Assembly: GCA_964626905.1 (NCBI GenBank)
Contig: CAZVHA010000001.1
Coordinates: forward strand, 65,294 to 129,293
Source: an uncultured bacterium
GTDB taxonomy: Bacteria; Chlamydiota; Chlamydiia; Chlamydiales; SM23-39
Direction of reading: 5' to 3'
DNA length: 64,000 nucleotides
This document shows, piece by piece, positions 5,361 through 49,332 of the stretch. Positions within the stretch are counted from its first letter, which is position 1. Each line of letters opens with the position of its first letter. Position numbers and translations under genes: made by a program. Below the pieces are notes generated by a model. The model made no database searches. It was not told the origin of the DNA and saw only the letters and a program-made list of their open reading frames with translations.

Positions 5361-5906
5361 ATGCATAAGTGGTATGTCGTTCAAGTGATGTCGAGCCATG
5401 AGAAGAAGGTGAAGAAGGCGATTGAAGAATATCTTCAGGCGCGCGGGCTTGCAGATGACATTGTTGAAATCTTAATTCCTACAGAAAACATCTCCGAAGT
5501 GAAAAGGGGACAGCAAAAAATCAGTGAAAAGAGGATGTGGCCGGGCTATCTTATGGTCCGCATGAATTTGACCGACGAGTCTTGGGCCTACATCAAAGAT
5601 ACCCCTGGAGTGATCGACTTCTTAGGGGGAGAAAAACCGGCCCCGCTCACCGAGAAAGAGGTGAACGACATCATGAAAGAGCTCGAAGATCGGCAAAAAG
5701 GGGTCGTGCAAAAACATAAGGTCGAAGTGGGCGACCGGGTCAAGATTACCGATGGAGTGTTTGTCAACTTTATCGGCACCGTGACCGAAGTGAACCACGA
5801 AAAAGGAAGACTCAGCGTAATGGTCTCGATCTTTGGTCGGGATACGCGGGTCGATGACCTCGAATTCTGGCAGGTGGAACAGACAACTGCAGAGAATACG
5901 GGGTAA
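5361..5906 (+). CDS. nusG: transcription termination/antitermination factor NusG
   Basis: 181 aa starting 'KWYVVQV.SSHEKKV' (NGN domain), with a C-terminal KOW motif (GDRVKITDGVFVNFIGTV). Confidence 0.95.
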   Translation: MHKWYVVQVMSSHEKKVKKAIEEYLQARGLADDIVEILIPTENISEVKRGQQKISEKRMWPGYLMVRMNLTDESWAYIKDTPGVIDFLGGEKPAPLTEKEVNDIMKELEDRQKGVVQKHKVEVGDRVKITDGVFVNFIGTVTEVNHEKGRLSVMVSIFGRDTRVDDLEFWQVEQTTAENTG

Positions 5907-5912
5907 TGGGGA

Positions 5913-5933
5913 GAAGGGCCCTAAGGGCCCTTC
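5913..5933 (+). promoter_or_regulatory. perfect 9 bp hairpin in the nusG-rplK spacer
   Basis: GAAGGGCCC-TAA-GGGCCCTTC. There is no downstream T-tract, so it is not a canonical terminator. It could be an attenuator or part of the L11-operon leader. Confidence 0.3.
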
Positions 5934-17387: not shown

Positions 17388-18344
17388 TTAGTACTTTTTT
17401 TTCATCCGAGTGACAATCAATTTTTCGAGTTTGACAATGTCGCTGACGAAGTTGCGGATCCCCTCGGAGAGTTTTTCCGTCGCCATCGCATTTTCATTGA
17501 GGAGGTATCGGAAGGTTTTTTCATCGACCGGCATCCGTTCAAGGGGGCTTGCCTTTGCCTTGGTGGGATCGAGTTTGCGGGGCACAGGGTCGGATGAGTC
17601 TTTGAGCTCTTCGAGCAGTTTTGGGGCGATCGTCAACAGGTCGCACCCGGCGAGCTCTAAAATTTCCTCTTTATTGCGGAAAGAGGCTCCCATGATCTGT
17701 GTCTGAATGCCAAATTTTTTATAGTAGGCAAAAATCTGGCTTACCGATTTGACGCCCGGGTCTTCTTGTGGGGGATAGCTCTCCTTGCCTTCCGCTTTTT
17801 TATACCAGTCGAGAATCCGGCCGACAAAGGGGGAGATGAGGGTTGCCTTGGCATCTGCACACGCAACCGCCTGCACCAAGCTGAACATGAGAGTCATGTT
17901 GCAGTGAATGCCCTCTTTTTCAAGTACCCTTGCGGCGAGCACCCCTTCCCAGGTCGATGCGAGCTTGATTAAAATCCTCTTGCGATCGATTTTGGCCGAC
18001 TCGTAAAGGGAGATGAGATGGCGCGCCTTGGAGATTGATCCCTCAACGTCGAATGAGAGCCGCGCGTCGACTTCAGTCGAGACTCTTCCTGGAATGATTT
18101 TCAATATTTCAAGGCCAAAGTTGACAAATACCCGATCAAAAATCTCCCCGAGCTCATTTTTTTTCCCTTTGCCATAGGCGATCGCCTCGTCGATGAGGTG
18201 TTGGTATTCGGCCTTTTCGCTCGCCGCATAGATCAGGGAAGGGTTGGTGGTTGCATCGGTTGGTAAATAGGCCTTCAAAGTCTCAAAATCACCCGTGTCG
18301 GCCACCACAGTGGTCATCTTTTTCAATTGATCGAGTTGGCTCAT
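17388..18344 (-). CDS. tal: transaldolase
   Basis: 318 aa; '[10 protein letters not shown]', 'DATTNPSL' and 'KLASTWEG' match class I transaldolase B. Confidence 0.93.
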
Positions 18345-18853
18345 GGCAACGGTCCTTTGATAAAATTAAAAAAACTCCCACCTTGCGAAAATCTTCCGAA
18401 GTGAAGAGAAAACTGGCTAGGCTCTAACCTCTCCCGAAAGCCATCCACCAGGATAACGACTTCTTTTCCATCTTGCAAGGATTGAATCACCTTTTGTGTC
18501 GATTCTGAAGAGAGTTTGAGCCGCATCCGCCCCTCATAAACAGCGGCTAAATCTTCAAATATTTCATCCTCGATTTCTATGATCACTCGCGCAGTATCAG
18601 AGGTGAAGTGGAACCGATTCAGGGTGAGGAAAGCTCCAATTTCGTTTCCAAAACGGATCAAGGCAAAGTTCAAAGGGGGGTGGGATTCAGGGGAGCAAAA
18701 GGTCATTTTCGACGAGTCAAAAGAGAGATCCCCCGCCATAATGGAATCCACTTCCCAAAGAGCAGGGCCCGAACAGGCGGACAAAAATAAAACAAGAGCC
18801 AGGTCAATGAGCCTCACTTCCATTGATCTTATCGGAAGGGGAAATTTTTGCAA
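18341..18853 (-). CDS. hypothetical lipoprotein
   Basis: 170 aa with a lipobox-like 'LFLSAC' after a hydrophobic N-terminus. Its stop overlaps the tal start by 4 nt, which suggests translational coupling. Confidence 0.5.
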
Positions 18854-18859
18854 ACTCCC

Positions 18860-19327
18860 TTACTTTTCTACGATGGAGAGCGATTGAAACGATTGGAGAA
18901 TATCGCTTTGGATTTTCACAAAATCTCCCTTAAGCGCTGCTGCTGTCAAAATGTAGGCCTTTCCTCCCTCTACAAAAAGGAGCTGCAGCATTCGGATCTC
19001 TCCCCAAGGAGAAGTGCTCGCAATTTCCAAAAGCCTCCCAGAGCCCGATTTCACTGCAAAGGGACCTAAATCGCGTAACTGGGCCGTCGGGTCCTCTTTT
19101 TGGATCTCTTTCACTGCTTTGACATACTCTTTCAGCGAAACGCCGACGCCCTCTTCTACGGACAAATTGATCGATGGGCGGAATTCCTTTTCCCCTTTGC
19201 CCAAAAATCCCAATTTTAGGTAAGGCGAAGGGTTTTTAAGTTTCGCCATTTCCCAGCCGGGAGGGGGAGTGAAAACGCACTCGTTTGCAAAACCCTGGAT
19301 GAAAAAAATGAGAAAAATAATCCGCAT
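18860..19327 (-). CDS. hypothetical exported protein
   Basis: 155 aa with a signal-like N-terminus (MRIIFLIFFIQGFA), then 'TPPPGWE'. Its start overlaps the stop of the upstream small ORF by 1 nt. Confidence 0.5.
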   Translation of the reverse strand: MRIIFLIFFIQGFANECVFTPPPGWEMAKLKNPSPYLKLGFLGKGEKEFRPSINLSVEEGVGVSLKEYVKAVKEIQKEDPTAQLRDLGPFAVKSGSGRLLEIASTSPWGEIRMLQLLFVEGGKAYILTAAALKGDFVKIQSDILQSFQSLSIVEK

Positions 19328-19548
19328 CAGTGACTTGTCGTGCTCTCACTGTTTTCGACGAGAGCACAGAATGTCGCAATTCCCACGGCAAGGCCAATCC
19401 CCCACCCCATCATCGACATGACGGTGGCATCGCGCGTCGCATACCCAGCTGCTTGACCCCTTCTGCACCGGCGTGCTGCAGCCGTCTCTTGGCTAAATCC
19501 GACACTTGCGACTCCGACACAAAGGATTGCAAAAACGACTCTCCTCAT
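19327..19548 (-). CDS. small exported Gly/Ala-rich protein, paralog 2 (73 aa)
   Basis: Signal-like N-terminus, a basic stretch (ARRCRRGQ), and a glycine-zipper-like hydrophobic segment (GWGIGLAVGIATF). It has the same length and architecture as the neighbouring ORF, and both end in 'SH'. Confidence 0.45.
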   Translation of the reverse strand: MRRVVFAILCVGVASVGFSQETAAARRCRRGQAAGYATRDATVMSMMGWGIGLAVGIATFCALVENSESTTSH

Positions 19549-19606
19549 ACCTCTTGCGTTATGTCACAACAGACAGTTTCAAACAAGCTCTAAGAGTAAC
19601 GCCTTC

Positions 19607-19828
19607 TCAGTGAGAGAAATGAGAATTGCTCCCCGTTCCGCTCCCGGCGATCACCTCAGCAATTGCCCCAACAACTGCGATTGCCCCCACTCCAATGACA
19701 CAAGCCTCTTTGGTTGAACAGGCTCCTGCACGTGCGCCCCTTCCCAAAACCGGCTTTTCTTCTGATGCAAATGCTCCTTGAGCCAAGAATAGCGCCCCAA
19801 GCACGCACCCCCCAATCCACCCTCTCAT
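19607..19828 (-). CDS. small exported Gly/Ala-rich protein, paralog 1 (73 aa)
   Basis: Signal-like N-terminus (CVLGALFLAQGAFA), then GRGARAG and a GxxxG-type segment VIGVGAIAVVGAIAEVIAG. It is the first gene of the minus-strand string that runs into tal. Confidence 0.45.
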   Translation of the reverse strand: MRGWIGGCVLGALFLAQGAFASEEKPVLGRGARAGACSTKEACVIGVGAIAVVGAIAEVIAGSGTGSNSHFSH

Positions 19829-19916
19829 AACCCACCCCCAGGTTCATCCTATCTTTTTCCCCAATTCTATTCTAATAAAACTATTTTCCCCTTGAAGGTG
19901 TTGGAAGAGGGAAAAA

Positions 19917-20486
19917 GGAGAGTATAAGACGGTCGGGCTGCTCCGCTCACGCTACGCCCCCGCACGCCCAGTGGCCCTATCTGAGACTTTGTAGACCGGG
20001 GTCGCTGAGCTCCCCCTATCGCGTCCTCGCCCTCGCCGTGCGGAGCACTGCTCTTGCGGGCTGCGGTGCGATTCTACTTTGTCTCAGCGGGCTCGGGCTA
20101 CGATGAGCGCTTCAGCTTCGCTTCCGCGTCGCATCGTAGGAGGGCCGGGCTCCGCCTCGGCCTTTTTTTGTGTGTGCCTAAAAACGATCGAGTTTAAACT
20201 GTTTTGCATTGTCCGCCAGGGCATTTTGGCCTACAAAGGGGCCGAGGCGAAGCCCGGCCCTCCCTACGATGCGACATGGAGGCGAAGCCGAAATGCTCAT
20301 CGTAGCCGATGCCCGCTGAGACAAAGTAGAATCGCACCGCAGCCCGCAAGAGCAGTGCTCCGCACGGCGAGGGCGAGGACGCGATAGGGGGAGCTCAGCG
20401 ACCCCGGTCTACAAAGTCTCAGATAGGGCCACTGGGCGTGCGGGGGCGTAGCGTGAGCGGAGCAGCCCGACCGTCTTATACTCTCC
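19917..20486. repeat. giant GC-rich inverted repeat (arms 19917-20162 and 20240-20486, 77 bp spacer)
   Basis: I checked this base by base: 19917-20092 is the exact reverse complement of 20311-20486 (176/176). The inner ~70 nt of each arm is only about 80% complementary and carries its own small hairpins. Confidence 0.95.
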
Positions 20487-20581
20487 CTTTTTTCTTTTTT
20501 CTTTGACCATTTTTATTTCACCTCCCATTAAAAAGTGGTTTCTGTATAGAATGCTGTGTTTGAGAACTTGGGGAGGCCTCG

Positions 20582-21208
20582 GTGAAAGGTTTAGAAACGG
20601 GAAAAGATAAAATCCAGAAAATTTGCGACGCCTTGAAAAAAGAAACCCTCGAGCCCGCAAAACAAGAGGCAAGGGAAATTGTCGAAAACGCCCACATGCA
20701 AGCCTCTGAAATTGTAAGCGATGCAAAAGCAAAAGCCGCATCAATCATCCGAGAGATTGAGAAAGAGATGGAAGAGAAAAAGAGGACGTTTACCTCGTCC
20801 TTGGGTCTCGCCTGTCGCCAAACGATCGAGCAGCTCAAACAGAGGATCGAAAAAGAGCTTTTCAATCAAGAGCTTGGCAAAATGGTCATCGGCGAAATGT
20901 CTCAGCCCAAAGTGATTGCGAATCTGCTCAACAGTTTCATGAAAGCGATGGAGGAAAAGGGGATCGAGGAGGATTTTGTCGCTCAAATTCCGAAGGGGAT
21001 CTCTCCGCGGGTGATCAACGACCTTTTGGCAGGGCGGATTTTGGAGCGTCTCCAGAACAAGACGGTTGTCGCTTCTGAGATTGCAGGCGGGCTGCAAATC
21101 CAACTGAAGCAAAGGCAAATTACAATCGATATTTCCGATGAGGTGGTGCGCGAGCTGATCGGACAATATATTCGGCGCGATTTAAGGGATCTTGTATTCA
21201 ACGTGTAA
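20582..21208 (+). CDS. atpE: V-type ATP synthase subunit E
   Basis: 208 aa with a GTG start, preceded by GGGGAGG. It has a charged coiled-coil N-terminus typical of V/A-ATPase subunit E and is the first gene of the operon. Confidence 0.8.
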   Translation: MKGLETGKDKIQKICDALKKETLEPAKQEAREIVENAHMQASEIVSDAKAKAASIIREIEKEMEEKKRTFTSSLGLACRQTIEQLKQRIEKELFNQELGKMVIGEMSQPKVIANLLNSFMKAMEEKGIEEDFVAQIPKGISPRVINDLLAGRILERLQNKTVVASEIAGGLQIQLKQRQITIDISDEVVRELIGQYIRRDLRDLVFNV

Positions 21209-47294: not shown

Positions 47295-47464
47295 ACCGGT
47301 AGCTCGGTTTCACTTTTGCCCTTGACGGCACCTTCTATATTAGTAATTATAAGCGGTTTACGTTCTATTCTTTTTTAGAAAGAGATCATAGGGTTTGCGA
47401 TAGTTGAGAAATTCCCGTATTTGTTGTTACAATGGTTCTCTTCTAAAAAAGCAAAAGGTGTTTG

Positions 47465-48124
47465 ATGAGAAAGCTAATGTGTTCATTGTTCATTGTAGGA
47501 ACCCTGTTGGCCGCCCCGCAGGCGGTAGTATTTGATTGGGGAAATGTGATAGCCATTGATGATCGCTCTGTAGTCGTAGATTTTATGTGTGAGACCTTTC
47601 AGTTTTCTGAGGAAGAGTTCGAAAAAGTCAATCTCAAGAAACGAAAAGCGATGAAAGAGGGAAAATCAGACGTGGAATTTTGGCTCCAGTTTGCTGCAAA
47701 GCGGGGGATTGATCTTGAAGATCAATGGCCTATGTCTTATCAAGCAACTCTCAAAAGGAGTATCGGCGTTGATGAAGAGATGTTTGCTATCGTCGCTGAG
47801 CTGCAAAGGAAACAGATCCCTGTTGCTCTCTTATCAAATATTAACGATAAATATACCAAACTCATTCGGGATTTCGGTTTTTATGACCCCTTCGAACCTT
47901 GCCTGCTTTCCTGTGAGATGGGGCTGGAAAAACCTGATCCAAAAGCCTATCAACTCCTTTTAGAAAAGCTTGACCTTCCCGCAAATGAGATCGTTTTCAT
48001 TGACGATTTAGAAGAAAATGTTGAAGCGGCTAAGAAGCTAGGCATCGACGCTATTGTCTTCAAATCTGCTACGCAAGTACGCAGCGAATTAGCAAAAAGG
48101 GGATTGGGGGTCGTCCAACAATAA
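47465..48124 (+). CDS. HAD-superfamily hydrolase (subfamily IA, YihX-like pattern)
   Basis: Motif I 'VVFDWGNVI', 'LLSN' and 'KPD...Y' followed by 'FIDD' are present. The N-terminus looks like a signal peptide. The last 18 nt lie inside the downstream palindrome. Confidence 0.75.
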   Translation: MRKLMCSLFIVGTLLAAPQAVVFDWGNVIAIDDRSVVVDFMCETFQFSEEEFEKVNLKKRKAMKEGKSDVEFWLQFAAKRGIDLEDQWPMSYQATLKRSIGVDEEMFAIVAELQRKQIPVALLSNINDKYTKLIRDFGFYDPFEPCLLSCEMGLEKPDPKAYQLLLEKLDLPANEIVFIDDLEENVEAAKKLGIDAIVFKSATQVRSELAKRGLGVVQQ

Positions 48125-48271
48125 CTTTTAGAGCTGTATAGGGAAAAATCGATTCATCTTATTGAGGATCTTCTCTTGCTGGTATTGATGCAATATCAGC
48201 TGCGAGAAGATCCTCAAAACCTGAACCGTTTTTCTCCTATACAGCTCTAAAATTTATTATTGGACAACCCC
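48107..48271. repeat. 165 bp imperfect palindrome covering the HAD gene stop
   Basis: Perfect blocks are TTTTAGAGCTGTATAGG (48126-42) / 48236-52 and GAGGATCTTCTC (48164-75) / 48204-15. The outer GGGGTCGTCCAACAATAA (48107-24) pairs imperfectly with 48254-71. Confidence 0.9.
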
Positions 48272-48369: not shown

Positions 48370-49332
48370 ATGAAAAAAGCCCTTCGGTTCCTTTTTTTAC
48401 TTGCCATTTTTTTTATTTCCTCCTGTGAACGGAATGAGGTGAAAAAGATTTTTCTCGTTTGGATGTTTGACCCTGAAAAATTTTGGGAGGCCGACTGGTG
48501 TCGCGAGCTTTTGGCGTCGGATCAATATGAGATCGAAGAGGTCACTGCCCTCGATGAAAAAATCTATTTGGACCGCGCCATCTACGTCACTCAATTGCCC
48601 CGAGAAAAAAAGGAGCTCGATCGATTTTTCAAAACGCTTCACAAAAAAGGGGCCAGGTTTGGGATCATCCATATCAGCGACGAGGAATATAGCCACTCTA
48701 CAAAGTCCTACTCCTACGCCAAATTTGTACTCAGGAACTATTGGAAGAAAAAGTTCGATGGCAATCCAAAAATTCTTCAAATCCCCCTTGGATATAAGAC
48801 AAAGTTTTGGGCAGATAGCCCCTCAAAGAAAAGCAAAAAAAGTAGCGAGCGGCAATACTTTGCCAGTTTTGCCGGGCAGTTGAGCAAAAGCGGGCGCAAG
48901 GAGATGGCCGAGCATATGCGAAAACTGGGCCATTTTTTTGTCCATGAGACCTCCTTTTTTGGATCTGCCGATGCACTCCCTGTCGATCAGTATAGAGATC
49001 TTTTAATGGATTCAGTCTTTGCTCCTTGTCCAAAGGGGTTTGTCAACGTCGACACCTTTCGCCTTTATGAGGCCCTTGAAGCGGGGGCTATTCCAATTGT
49101 GGAAAAGGGCCCCTCCGATTACTACGAGCACCTTTTTCAAGGGAAATACCCGTTTTTCGCAATCGATCAGTGGGATGAGGTGGGTACCCTTCTGAATGAG
49201 GGCTTTCTCTCAGACCCCGAACGGATCGAGCAAAAACGGCAAGAGTGCATCGATTGGTGGAAAAAATCCAAAGAGGAACTGCGAAAAAAAATCCAAAGGC
49301 AAATCATTCGTTCATTTTTCTTTTTGCCTTGA
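48370..49332 (+). CDS. exostosin-like (GT47-type) glycosyltransferase candidate, lipoprotein-type N-terminus
   Basis: 320 aa with 'FFISSC' lipobox-like signal. The C-terminal 'Y..L..SVFAPCPKG.....FRLYEALEAGAIPIV' resembles the exostosin family motif. Recognised by eye only. Confidence 0.45.
   Translation: MKKALRFLFLLAIFFISSCERNEVKKIFLVWMFDPEKFWEADWCRELLASDQYEIEEVTALDEKIYLDRAIYVTQLPREKKELDRFFKTLHKKGARFGIIHISDEEYSHSTKSYSYAKFVLRNYWKKKFDGNPKILQIPLGYKTKFWADSPSKKSKKSSERQYFASFAGQLSKSGRKEMAEHMRKLGHFFVHETSFFGSADALPVDQYRDLLMDSVFAPCPKGFVNVDTFRLYEALEAGAIPIVEKGPSDYYEHLFQGKYPFFAIDQWDEVGTLLNEGFLSDPERIEQKRQECIDWWKKSKEELRKKIQRQIIRSFFFLP

Follow-up and report, generated by a model that had tools for sequence, protein, structure and literature searches.

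How does a near-perfect palindrome of ~600 bases come to stand in a bacterial chromosome, and which of its properties is being kept? The question is raised by an intergenic element upstream of the V-ATPase gene atpE in a 64,000-nucleotide stretch of contig CAZVHA010000001.1 (assembly GCA_964626905.1), here called the window, from an uncultured member of the Chlamydiales. An earlier sequence-only reading of this DNA held that such a palindrome needs explaining, a view that is accepted here. The exact repeat it described is reproduced: positions 20311–20486 are the reverse complement of 19917–20092 over 176 nt, with 0 mismatches. A repeat search extends the arms to 245 nt (19905–20149 and 20254–20498, 93% complementary) and adds an inner pair of 29 nt (20139–20167 and 20235–20263, 90%). 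Once one 1-nt indel is allowed, the entire inverted repeat covers ~19902–20499. The imperfect inward continuation of the arms stands as first described; the spacer, given earlier as 77 bp, measures ~67 nt in the repeat search. The inner 75 nt of the arms contain ~12 arm-to-arm mismatches. The element is also GC-rich, as had been noticed, at 61.4% compared with 48.9% for the window. As single-stranded DNA it folds into one hairpin of -361 kcal/mol (shuffled sequences, -118±5; z = -52), which is far beyond chance.

The structure is real and unusual. Sibling small RNA genes, which are a known kind of system, are its likeliest explanation; the family would be new and very narrowly distributed. The palindrome would represent the inverted duplication of one new, lineage-restricted, GC-rich gene for a structured small RNA of ~245 nt, a reading to which a probability of about one half is assigned. 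The proposed mechanism has five elements. (i) Both copies would be transcribed inward to give two nearly identical stable RNAs, known as sibling small RNAs. (ii) The copies would converge on back-to-back terminators at the centre. (iii) The single-stranded, C-rich 5' part would serve as the working surface, either by base-pairing with G-rich targets or by binding protein. (iv) Recent gene conversion between the copies would have produced the perfect identity of the outer 176 nt. (v) The long palindrome itself would be a by-product, prone to deletion.

The evidence that carries this reading comes from comparison of the arms with each other and with those of a distant carrier. The Parachlamydiales metagenome-assembled genome (MAG) GCA_019694475.1 (L010), whose AtpE is 83% identical to that of the window, holds a full-length arm copy (L010_L; 5523–5767, plus strand) and an inverted copy (L010_R; 5781–5921, minus strand) at the same site upstream of atpE. 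The inverted copy is without an internal 106 nt and retains the 5' region, the 3' hairpin and the terminator. The arms of window and L010 are 83–88% identical, and 61 of the outer 65 nt agree, compared with 74–76% identity in the flanking coding DNA and 37%, which is saturation, at four-fold degenerate sites. The units were aligned from the outer edge to the centre (alignment A3), and a covariance model (R1) was built for the unit. The consensus structure comprises 78 pairs, 11 of which show double compensatory changes. Shuffled controls give 3.5±1.4 such pairs (0 of 500 reach 11), and sliding the partners by 1–3 columns gives 0–2. Stem differences between the two window copies are limited to 3 pairs, each of them compensated and none broken. 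Between the left copies of window and L010, 9 pairs are compensated, 1 change is one-sided and 4 pairs are broken. A hairpin, a GC hairpin and a T-rich tail make up the 3' module. All four copies build it alike, and in each its fold is more stable than that of shuffled sequence (z = -3.3, -2.6, -3.5 and -1.8). Two G-U pairs, at columns 97/141 and 181/203, do not vary, and G-U cells number 11 versus 4 A-C cells; these pairs, together with T-rich tails that occur in the inward sense only, favour the inward-reading strand. Constraint acts on local structure inside each arm, not on arm-to-arm complementarity. Pairing between the arms is not what is kept, because the inner mismatches break it and L010_R is 106 nt shorter. 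The cruciform and the very long hairpin RNA that the sequence-only reading had proposed are not supported as selected features for the same reason: the differences between arms disrupt arm pairing and preserve local hairpins.

The anatomy of the unit (table 1) resembles that of a small RNA gene. The 5' region, 61/65 identical between window and L010_L and present also in the truncated L010_R, is less structured than shuffled sequence (fold z = +1.7 and +0.6), and its helix 1 shows no compensatory change. A branched central domain of ~105 nt separates it from the 3' hairpin, in which 6 of 15 pairs covary across copies (5 of 12 in helix 9 and 1 of 3 in the apical helix 10). This hairpin has fold z values of -3.3 and -2.6 and contains the invariant G-U pair at columns 181/203. 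In the left terminator-like hairpin, one G-C pair is replaced by A-U in the L010 copies, a compensatory change. All four copies close with a terminal hairpin and T-rich tail. In each of the five copies seen, GGTCGGG is preceded at a distance of 6–9 nt by a weak ATA-containing, -10-like motif. An open, conserved 5' part followed by a 3' terminator is the layout of many trans-acting small RNAs. The sequence-only reading had named, as a finding that would count against its view of the palindrome, that each arm is a fragment of a duplicated gene without structural role. The result comes close to this, in that each arm looks like a complete structured-RNA gene with its terminator.

Protein-coding alternatives find little in the arms. 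The earlier statement that the element contains no credible gene holds: the open reading frames (ORFs) at 20079–20387 (plus strand) and 20409–20744 (minus strand) are only mechanical and have no Pfam match. Gene calling on a same-species contig that spans the element leaves the former uncalled and recovers only a 39-codon 3' piece of the latter (20410–20529). A long sense frame is open through the unit; its first ATG, GTG or TTG comes only 22 codons ahead of the stop, and its length is unconserved. In the conserved core (AGCACTGCTCTTGCGGGCTGCG onward, ~15 codons of this frame), window and L010 show 0 synonymous differences despite saturated neutral sites, a count taken by eye from alignment A3 and not a computed statistic. 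A search of 5.8 billion proteins gives no homologue of the translated sense frame, and a six-frame Pfam search of the arm segments gives no match; on these two results the arms were rejected as protein-gene fragments. Judged by its sequence, the unit is not protein-coding. Among known RNAs, Rfam 15 returns for window and L010 only far-sub-threshold matches to plant miRNA-precursor hairpins on the palindromic centre, and ARAGORN finds no tRNA or tmRNA at the element.

Whether the palindrome exists outside one assembly bears on every explanation of it. The sequence-only reading had listed an assembly artefact, that is, a fold-back chimera, among its possibilities. In its favour, short-read contigs stop within the arms, at 20457 and 19946 (L002, L004, L005 and L021) and at 20092 (L020). 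Breaks at mirror positions are, however, expected of a true inverted repeat. A strain with ~94% identical DNA (ERZ27247831) carries the ends of the element: its left-side contig runs up to the left arm's outer edge, and its right-side contig opens with the final 17 nt of the right arm. A same-species ENA contig of 10.5 kb (L001) covers the complete element with unique flanking sequence on both sides. In this contig and in one from a second ENA assembly of the species (L003), the right arm alone has an inserted G and a G>A change when compared with the left arm. There the two arms can be told apart as separate loci, so that the perfect identity over 176 nt belongs only to the assembly or strain of the window. 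This identity is consistent with gene conversion that erased the right-arm differences or with consensus collapse in the assembly, the latter being a further point for an artefact. Against it, the ~12 inner arm differences recur consistently across assemblies, and a two-copy homologous element occurs in the MAG of another species, its outer arm being found also in a separate run (L011). The artefact is effectively refuted and retains a negligible probability. The right-arm differences themselves form a within-species polymorphism at 20405–20418, with the inserted G in a predicted loop and the G>A beside a GGGG stem.

The cassette is accessory and patchy, and is present in few uncultured chlamydia-like bacteria. 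In L006, whose AtpE is 92% identical to the window's, the segment corresponding to ~19894–20529 is missing, and 19896 is joined directly to ~20522. This junction carries a single TATTCTCCCCTT in place of the two direct-repeat copies that flank the cassette. In L017, whose AtpE is 90% identical to that of L010, 54 nt replace L010:5479–5936, and the L010 junctions show no recognisable direct repeat by this comparison. The closest relatives of both carriers thus have empty sites, L006 for the window and L017, L018 and L019 for L010; the cassette is missing from L007, L008 and L009 as well. Covariance model R1 detects no diverged copy in the orthologous loci of L007, L008, L009, L017, L018 and L019, and neither BLAST nor the model finds a further arm when run over the window and 10 related loci. 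The search of related genomes that the sequence-only reading had advised thus did reveal empty sites, and yielded no extra copies in the window or these 10 loci. Collection scans used an exact 20-mer that is invariant in all copies, so that diverged copies would be missed. Among 185,579 species-representative genomes this 20-mer matches only the L010 contig at this locus and, by chance, a Streptomyces sequence. JGI metagenomes give three chance matches in high-GC coding DNA and no true one, and viral contigs give none. One arm compared with plasmids and phages by blastn shows no similarity. The cassette appears to be confined to a single locus. The empty sites would be accounted for by loss through deletion in sister lineages, independent gain being a further possibility. 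Long interrupted palindromes are recombinogenic and are targets of SbcCD in Escherichia coli (PMC3315005). If the palindrome is a liability, its repeated absence from sister lineages fits.

Several observations weigh against sibling small RNA genes. The whole unit folds no better than shuffled sequence (z ~0), the 3' module alone standing out. The covariation is based on four informative copies from two lineages, two copies being paralogues, and template-switch mutation in quasi-palindromic DNA can yield compensatory changes without selection on RNA (PMC8794818). A scan for consensus sigma-70-type promoters found none at the units, and conservation is poor in the upstream flanks. When the unit was folded as an RNA duplex with 52 start regions of the window, unrealistic duplexes with long loops resulted, and no target or partner is proposed. 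The transcription, promoters and function ascribed to the units come from a reading of sequence. The cassette is, in addition, very patchy, with empty sites in the closest relatives; this patchiness, combined with strong conservation between distant carriers, also fits the horizontal spread of a mobile or selfish element. Such an element is the main alternative, though an unlikely one: a non-autonomous fold-back of the miniature inverted-repeat transposable element (MITE) type, or a horizontally spread selfish cassette, would have landed upstream of atpE. Its hairpins would be DNA features for a transposase or products of template switching, any RNA being incidental. The two explanations overlap, since a mobile cassette could carry RNA genes. 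The MITE or fold-back option of the sequence-only reading gains from the empty sites and from an imperfect 12-nt direct repeat around the cassette where L006 has a single copy; it loses in that no other copy is found in the window, the fetched loci or a related genome. A GC content of 61% in surroundings of 49%, and an identity between carriers (83–94%) far above that of neutral sites (37%), also speak for mobility, as does the occurrence of small palindromic insertions in related genomes, such as L008:5345–5540, which is absent from L007. On the other side, BLAST and the covariance model give no second copy in the 64-kb window or 10 related loci, the invariant 20-mer occurs in the L010 MAG at this locus only, and the genome, metagenome and viral scans add no true match. 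No transposase or recombinase lies in the window's neighbourhood, a statement made without a dedicated search for a cognate autonomous element. Direct repeats are lacking at the L010 junctions, orthology accounts better than repeated transposition for an insertion site shared by two lineages, and mobility leaves unexplained the T-rich tail behind the terminal hairpin in all copies. The shared site, the empty sites in the closest relatives and versions far more alike than neutral DNA leave room for an intermediate possibility, which is decidedly improbable: a protein-less cassette of two mirrored structured-RNA genes, spread horizontally among related intracellular chlamydiae and inserted site-specifically upstream of the V-ATPase operon, which would be an undescribed mobile or selfish RNA-gene element. 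As a variant, a read-through long hairpin RNA from such a cassette might act on the eukaryotic host.

The remaining explanations place function in the DNA, in a peptide or in one long transcript. A DNA-level cis element, such as a cruciform-forming or protein-binding insulator between divergent promoters that absorbs negative supercoils or offers one binding site to both operons, would suit a position exactly between divergent operons and ~30 nt upstream of the atpE -10 box. The inverted arrangement in both carrier lineages and an enormous hairpin potential (z = -52) would suit it equally. It is nonetheless improbable: the inner arms diverge with compensation inside each arm, one L010 arm is without 106 nt, most relatives run the same two operons without the cassette, and the ~240 nt constrained per arm far exceed the needs of a binding site. 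Type I toxin–antitoxin loci typically occur patchily and as duplicated copies within one intergenic site, and both traits are seen here. Each arm might accordingly be a structured mRNA for a hydrophobic peptide, since a hydrophobic frame of 22 codons (GTG start, VRSTALAGCGAILLCLSGLGLR) lies inside the highly structured ~245-nt unit. This is very unlikely, because no Shine–Dalgarno sequence precedes the GTG, the stop is unconserved (the frame runs 60+ more codons in L010_L and is deleted in L010_R), and changes are almost all non-synonymous, with none that is synonymous in the core. Convergent copies give identical, not complementary, RNAs, so that no antitoxin is evident. Still less can be said for a single long hairpin, a double-stranded read-through transcript perhaps cut by RNase III or by host RNA interference. 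The complementarity (176 bp perfect and ~70 bp imperfect) would allow it, and the organism, which belongs to a group of obligate intracellular symbionts of eukaryotes, would offer a setting. Two facing terminator-like hairpins at the centre, selection within rather than between arms and the unequal length of the L010 arms make it highly improbable.

Sibling small RNA genes with Rho-independent terminators are familiar from OmrA/OmrB, PrrF1/PrrF2 and Qrr1–5. Like these, the cassette consists of two near-identical non-coding units at one intergenic locus, patchy among relatives, and in each unit the 5' part is conserved, the body varies more, and a GC hairpin with a U-tract closes the 3' end. 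Unlike tandem siblings, the copies here are inverted and convergent, which creates the 600-bp palindrome, and the units are long (~245 nt), GC-rich and without sequence or Rfam relationship to a known family. The bacterial MITEs and palindromic repeats Correia/CREE, ERIC/IRU, RPE and BOX share with the cassette the character of a non-coding, self-complementary intergenic insertion with empty sites and a possible flanking direct repeat. The cassette differs from them in being ~4 times longer and at a single locus instead of dispersed. It is also an inverted repeat as a whole and not short termini around a core, and its arms end in terminator-like modules. The Enterococcus par locus (Fst RNA I/RNA II), a type I toxin–antitoxin system, is likewise an intergenic cassette of two small convergent units that end back to back at central terminators. 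In par, direct repeats make the two RNAs complementary, and a conserved toxin peptide is encoded by one of them, whereas the RNAs predicted here are same-sense and identical, with no conserved ORF. As a palindrome, the element resembles an interrupted palindrome of 246 bp that was engineered into E. coli lacZ: in both, a short spacer separates the arms of a long inverted repeat on the chromosome. DNA of this type is cut by SbcCD and gives rise to rearrangements (PMC3315005). The element differs from that construct in being natural, in being kept in at least two species, and in having mismatched inner arms and a spacer of 62–104 nt.

Table 1. Features of the palindromic cassette and its borders (window coordinates).
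Feature	Position	Strand	Remarks
Left arm of perfect repeat	19917..20092	none	exact reverse complement of 20311–20486
Right arm of perfect repeat	20311..20486	none	one extra G and one G>A relative to left arm in L001 and L003
Left copy, putative structured small RNA of ~242 nt	19928..20169	+	R1 score 279 bits; reads toward centre
Right copy, putative structured small RNA	20232..20475	-	R1 score 293 bits at 20230–20475; reads toward centre
5' region of unit, C-rich	19928..19992; mirror 20411–20475	+; mirror -	best conserved part; no detectable structure
3' hairpin, CTACGATG...CATCGTAG	20098..20139; mirror 20264–20305	+; mirror -	42 nt; covaries
Terminator-like GC hairpin and T7, inner end of left unit	20142..20169	+	terminator scan match 20138–20167
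Terminator-like GC hairpin, weaker T-rich tail (CCTTTGT), inner end of right unit	20232..20261	-	from copy comparison
Central spacer, unconserved	20170..20231	none	~62 nt here, ~12 nt in L010; no similarity
A/G-rich outer flank of left unit	19894..19927	+	TATAAG at 19923–19928; putative promoter region
A-rich outer flank of right unit	20476..20513	-	mirror TATAAG; putative promoter region
Flanking imperfect direct repeat, left copy TATTTTCCCCTT	19882..19893	none	12 nt
Flanking imperfect direct repeat, right copy TATTTCACCTCCCATT	20514..20529	none	16 nt
atpE-proximal -10-like box TATAGAAT	20545..20552	+	outside cassette; kept in relatives without cassette

The position of the element between divergently transcribed operons is as the sequence-only reading described it, with tal and small-protein genes on the minus strand to the left and the V-ATPase operon on the plus strand to the right. 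Pfam assignments on the same-species contig identify, on the left, four small ORFs, TAL_FSA (tal) and SRP54 (ftsY), with rpoC further left, and, on the right, the atpE, DUF2764 and ATP-synt_ab genes of the V-ATPase. From this gene order and the AtpE homologues, the window is assigned to an environmental member of the Parachlamydiales. The counterpart of the atpE -10 box is TAAAAT in L006 and CAGAAT in L010, L017 and L019, and the cassette is inserted ~31–33 nt upstream of this box in both carrier lineages. A 5' leader or riboswitch shared by both operons was rejected as unlikely, since the cassette does not include the box and relatives without the cassette keep the box, and since the centre of the L010 element (~12 nt) is too small for outward promoters. 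A replication origin was likewise rejected: the local GC-skew minimum near 20 kb reflects gene orientation only, and skew at the 2-kb scale is positive on both sides. The small ORFs between tal and atpE (18341–19828, minus strand) are signal-peptide-like and rich in Gly and Ala, and they vary in number and size among close relatives. The window has members of 73, 73, 155 and 160 aa; sets elsewhere include members of 221–227 aa and 61–86 aa. The block was compared in the window, L007, L008, L010, L017, L018 and L019, and no member has a Pfam family. L018 and L019 carry an extra small exported-protein gene at the position of the cassette.

Other palindromic sequences were encountered. A quasi-palindrome of 165 bp at 48107–48271, 81% self-complementary over its full length, lies between ORFs 47462–48124 (plus strand) and 48370–49332 (plus strand); it has no other copy in the window or fetched loci and may be a small MITE-like element. 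An inverted repeat at 57974–58113, with 35-nt arms (97% complementary) rich in CACCGAGG motifs and a 70-nt spacer, sits between the convergent ORFs 56194–57936 (plus strand) and 58147–58842 (minus strand). L008:5345–5540, present also as L009:3357–3552, is a palindromic insertion of ~175 bp with the ends GGAGACC...GGTCTC. Only 3 nt separate it from the start codon of a small downstream ORF on the minus strand, and it is absent from the otherwise collinear L007, so that palindromic insertions do occur in related chlamydial genomes.

For the study of long palindromes in general, the locus suggests that constraint within the arms should be tested before an element is called a cruciform, a MITE or an artefact. 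Such elements also break short-read assemblies at predictable points. If the proposed reading is correct, the locus would be a natural case in which inverted duplication and gene conversion have generated a near-perfect chromosomal palindrome of 600 bp that persists in some lineages. To our knowledge, almost no regulatory RNAs have been described in environmental Parachlamydiales. The units would then represent a new family of structured small RNAs in these uncultured symbionts of protists, and they would gain in interest should the cassette turn out to be mobile or the RNA to act in the interaction with the host.

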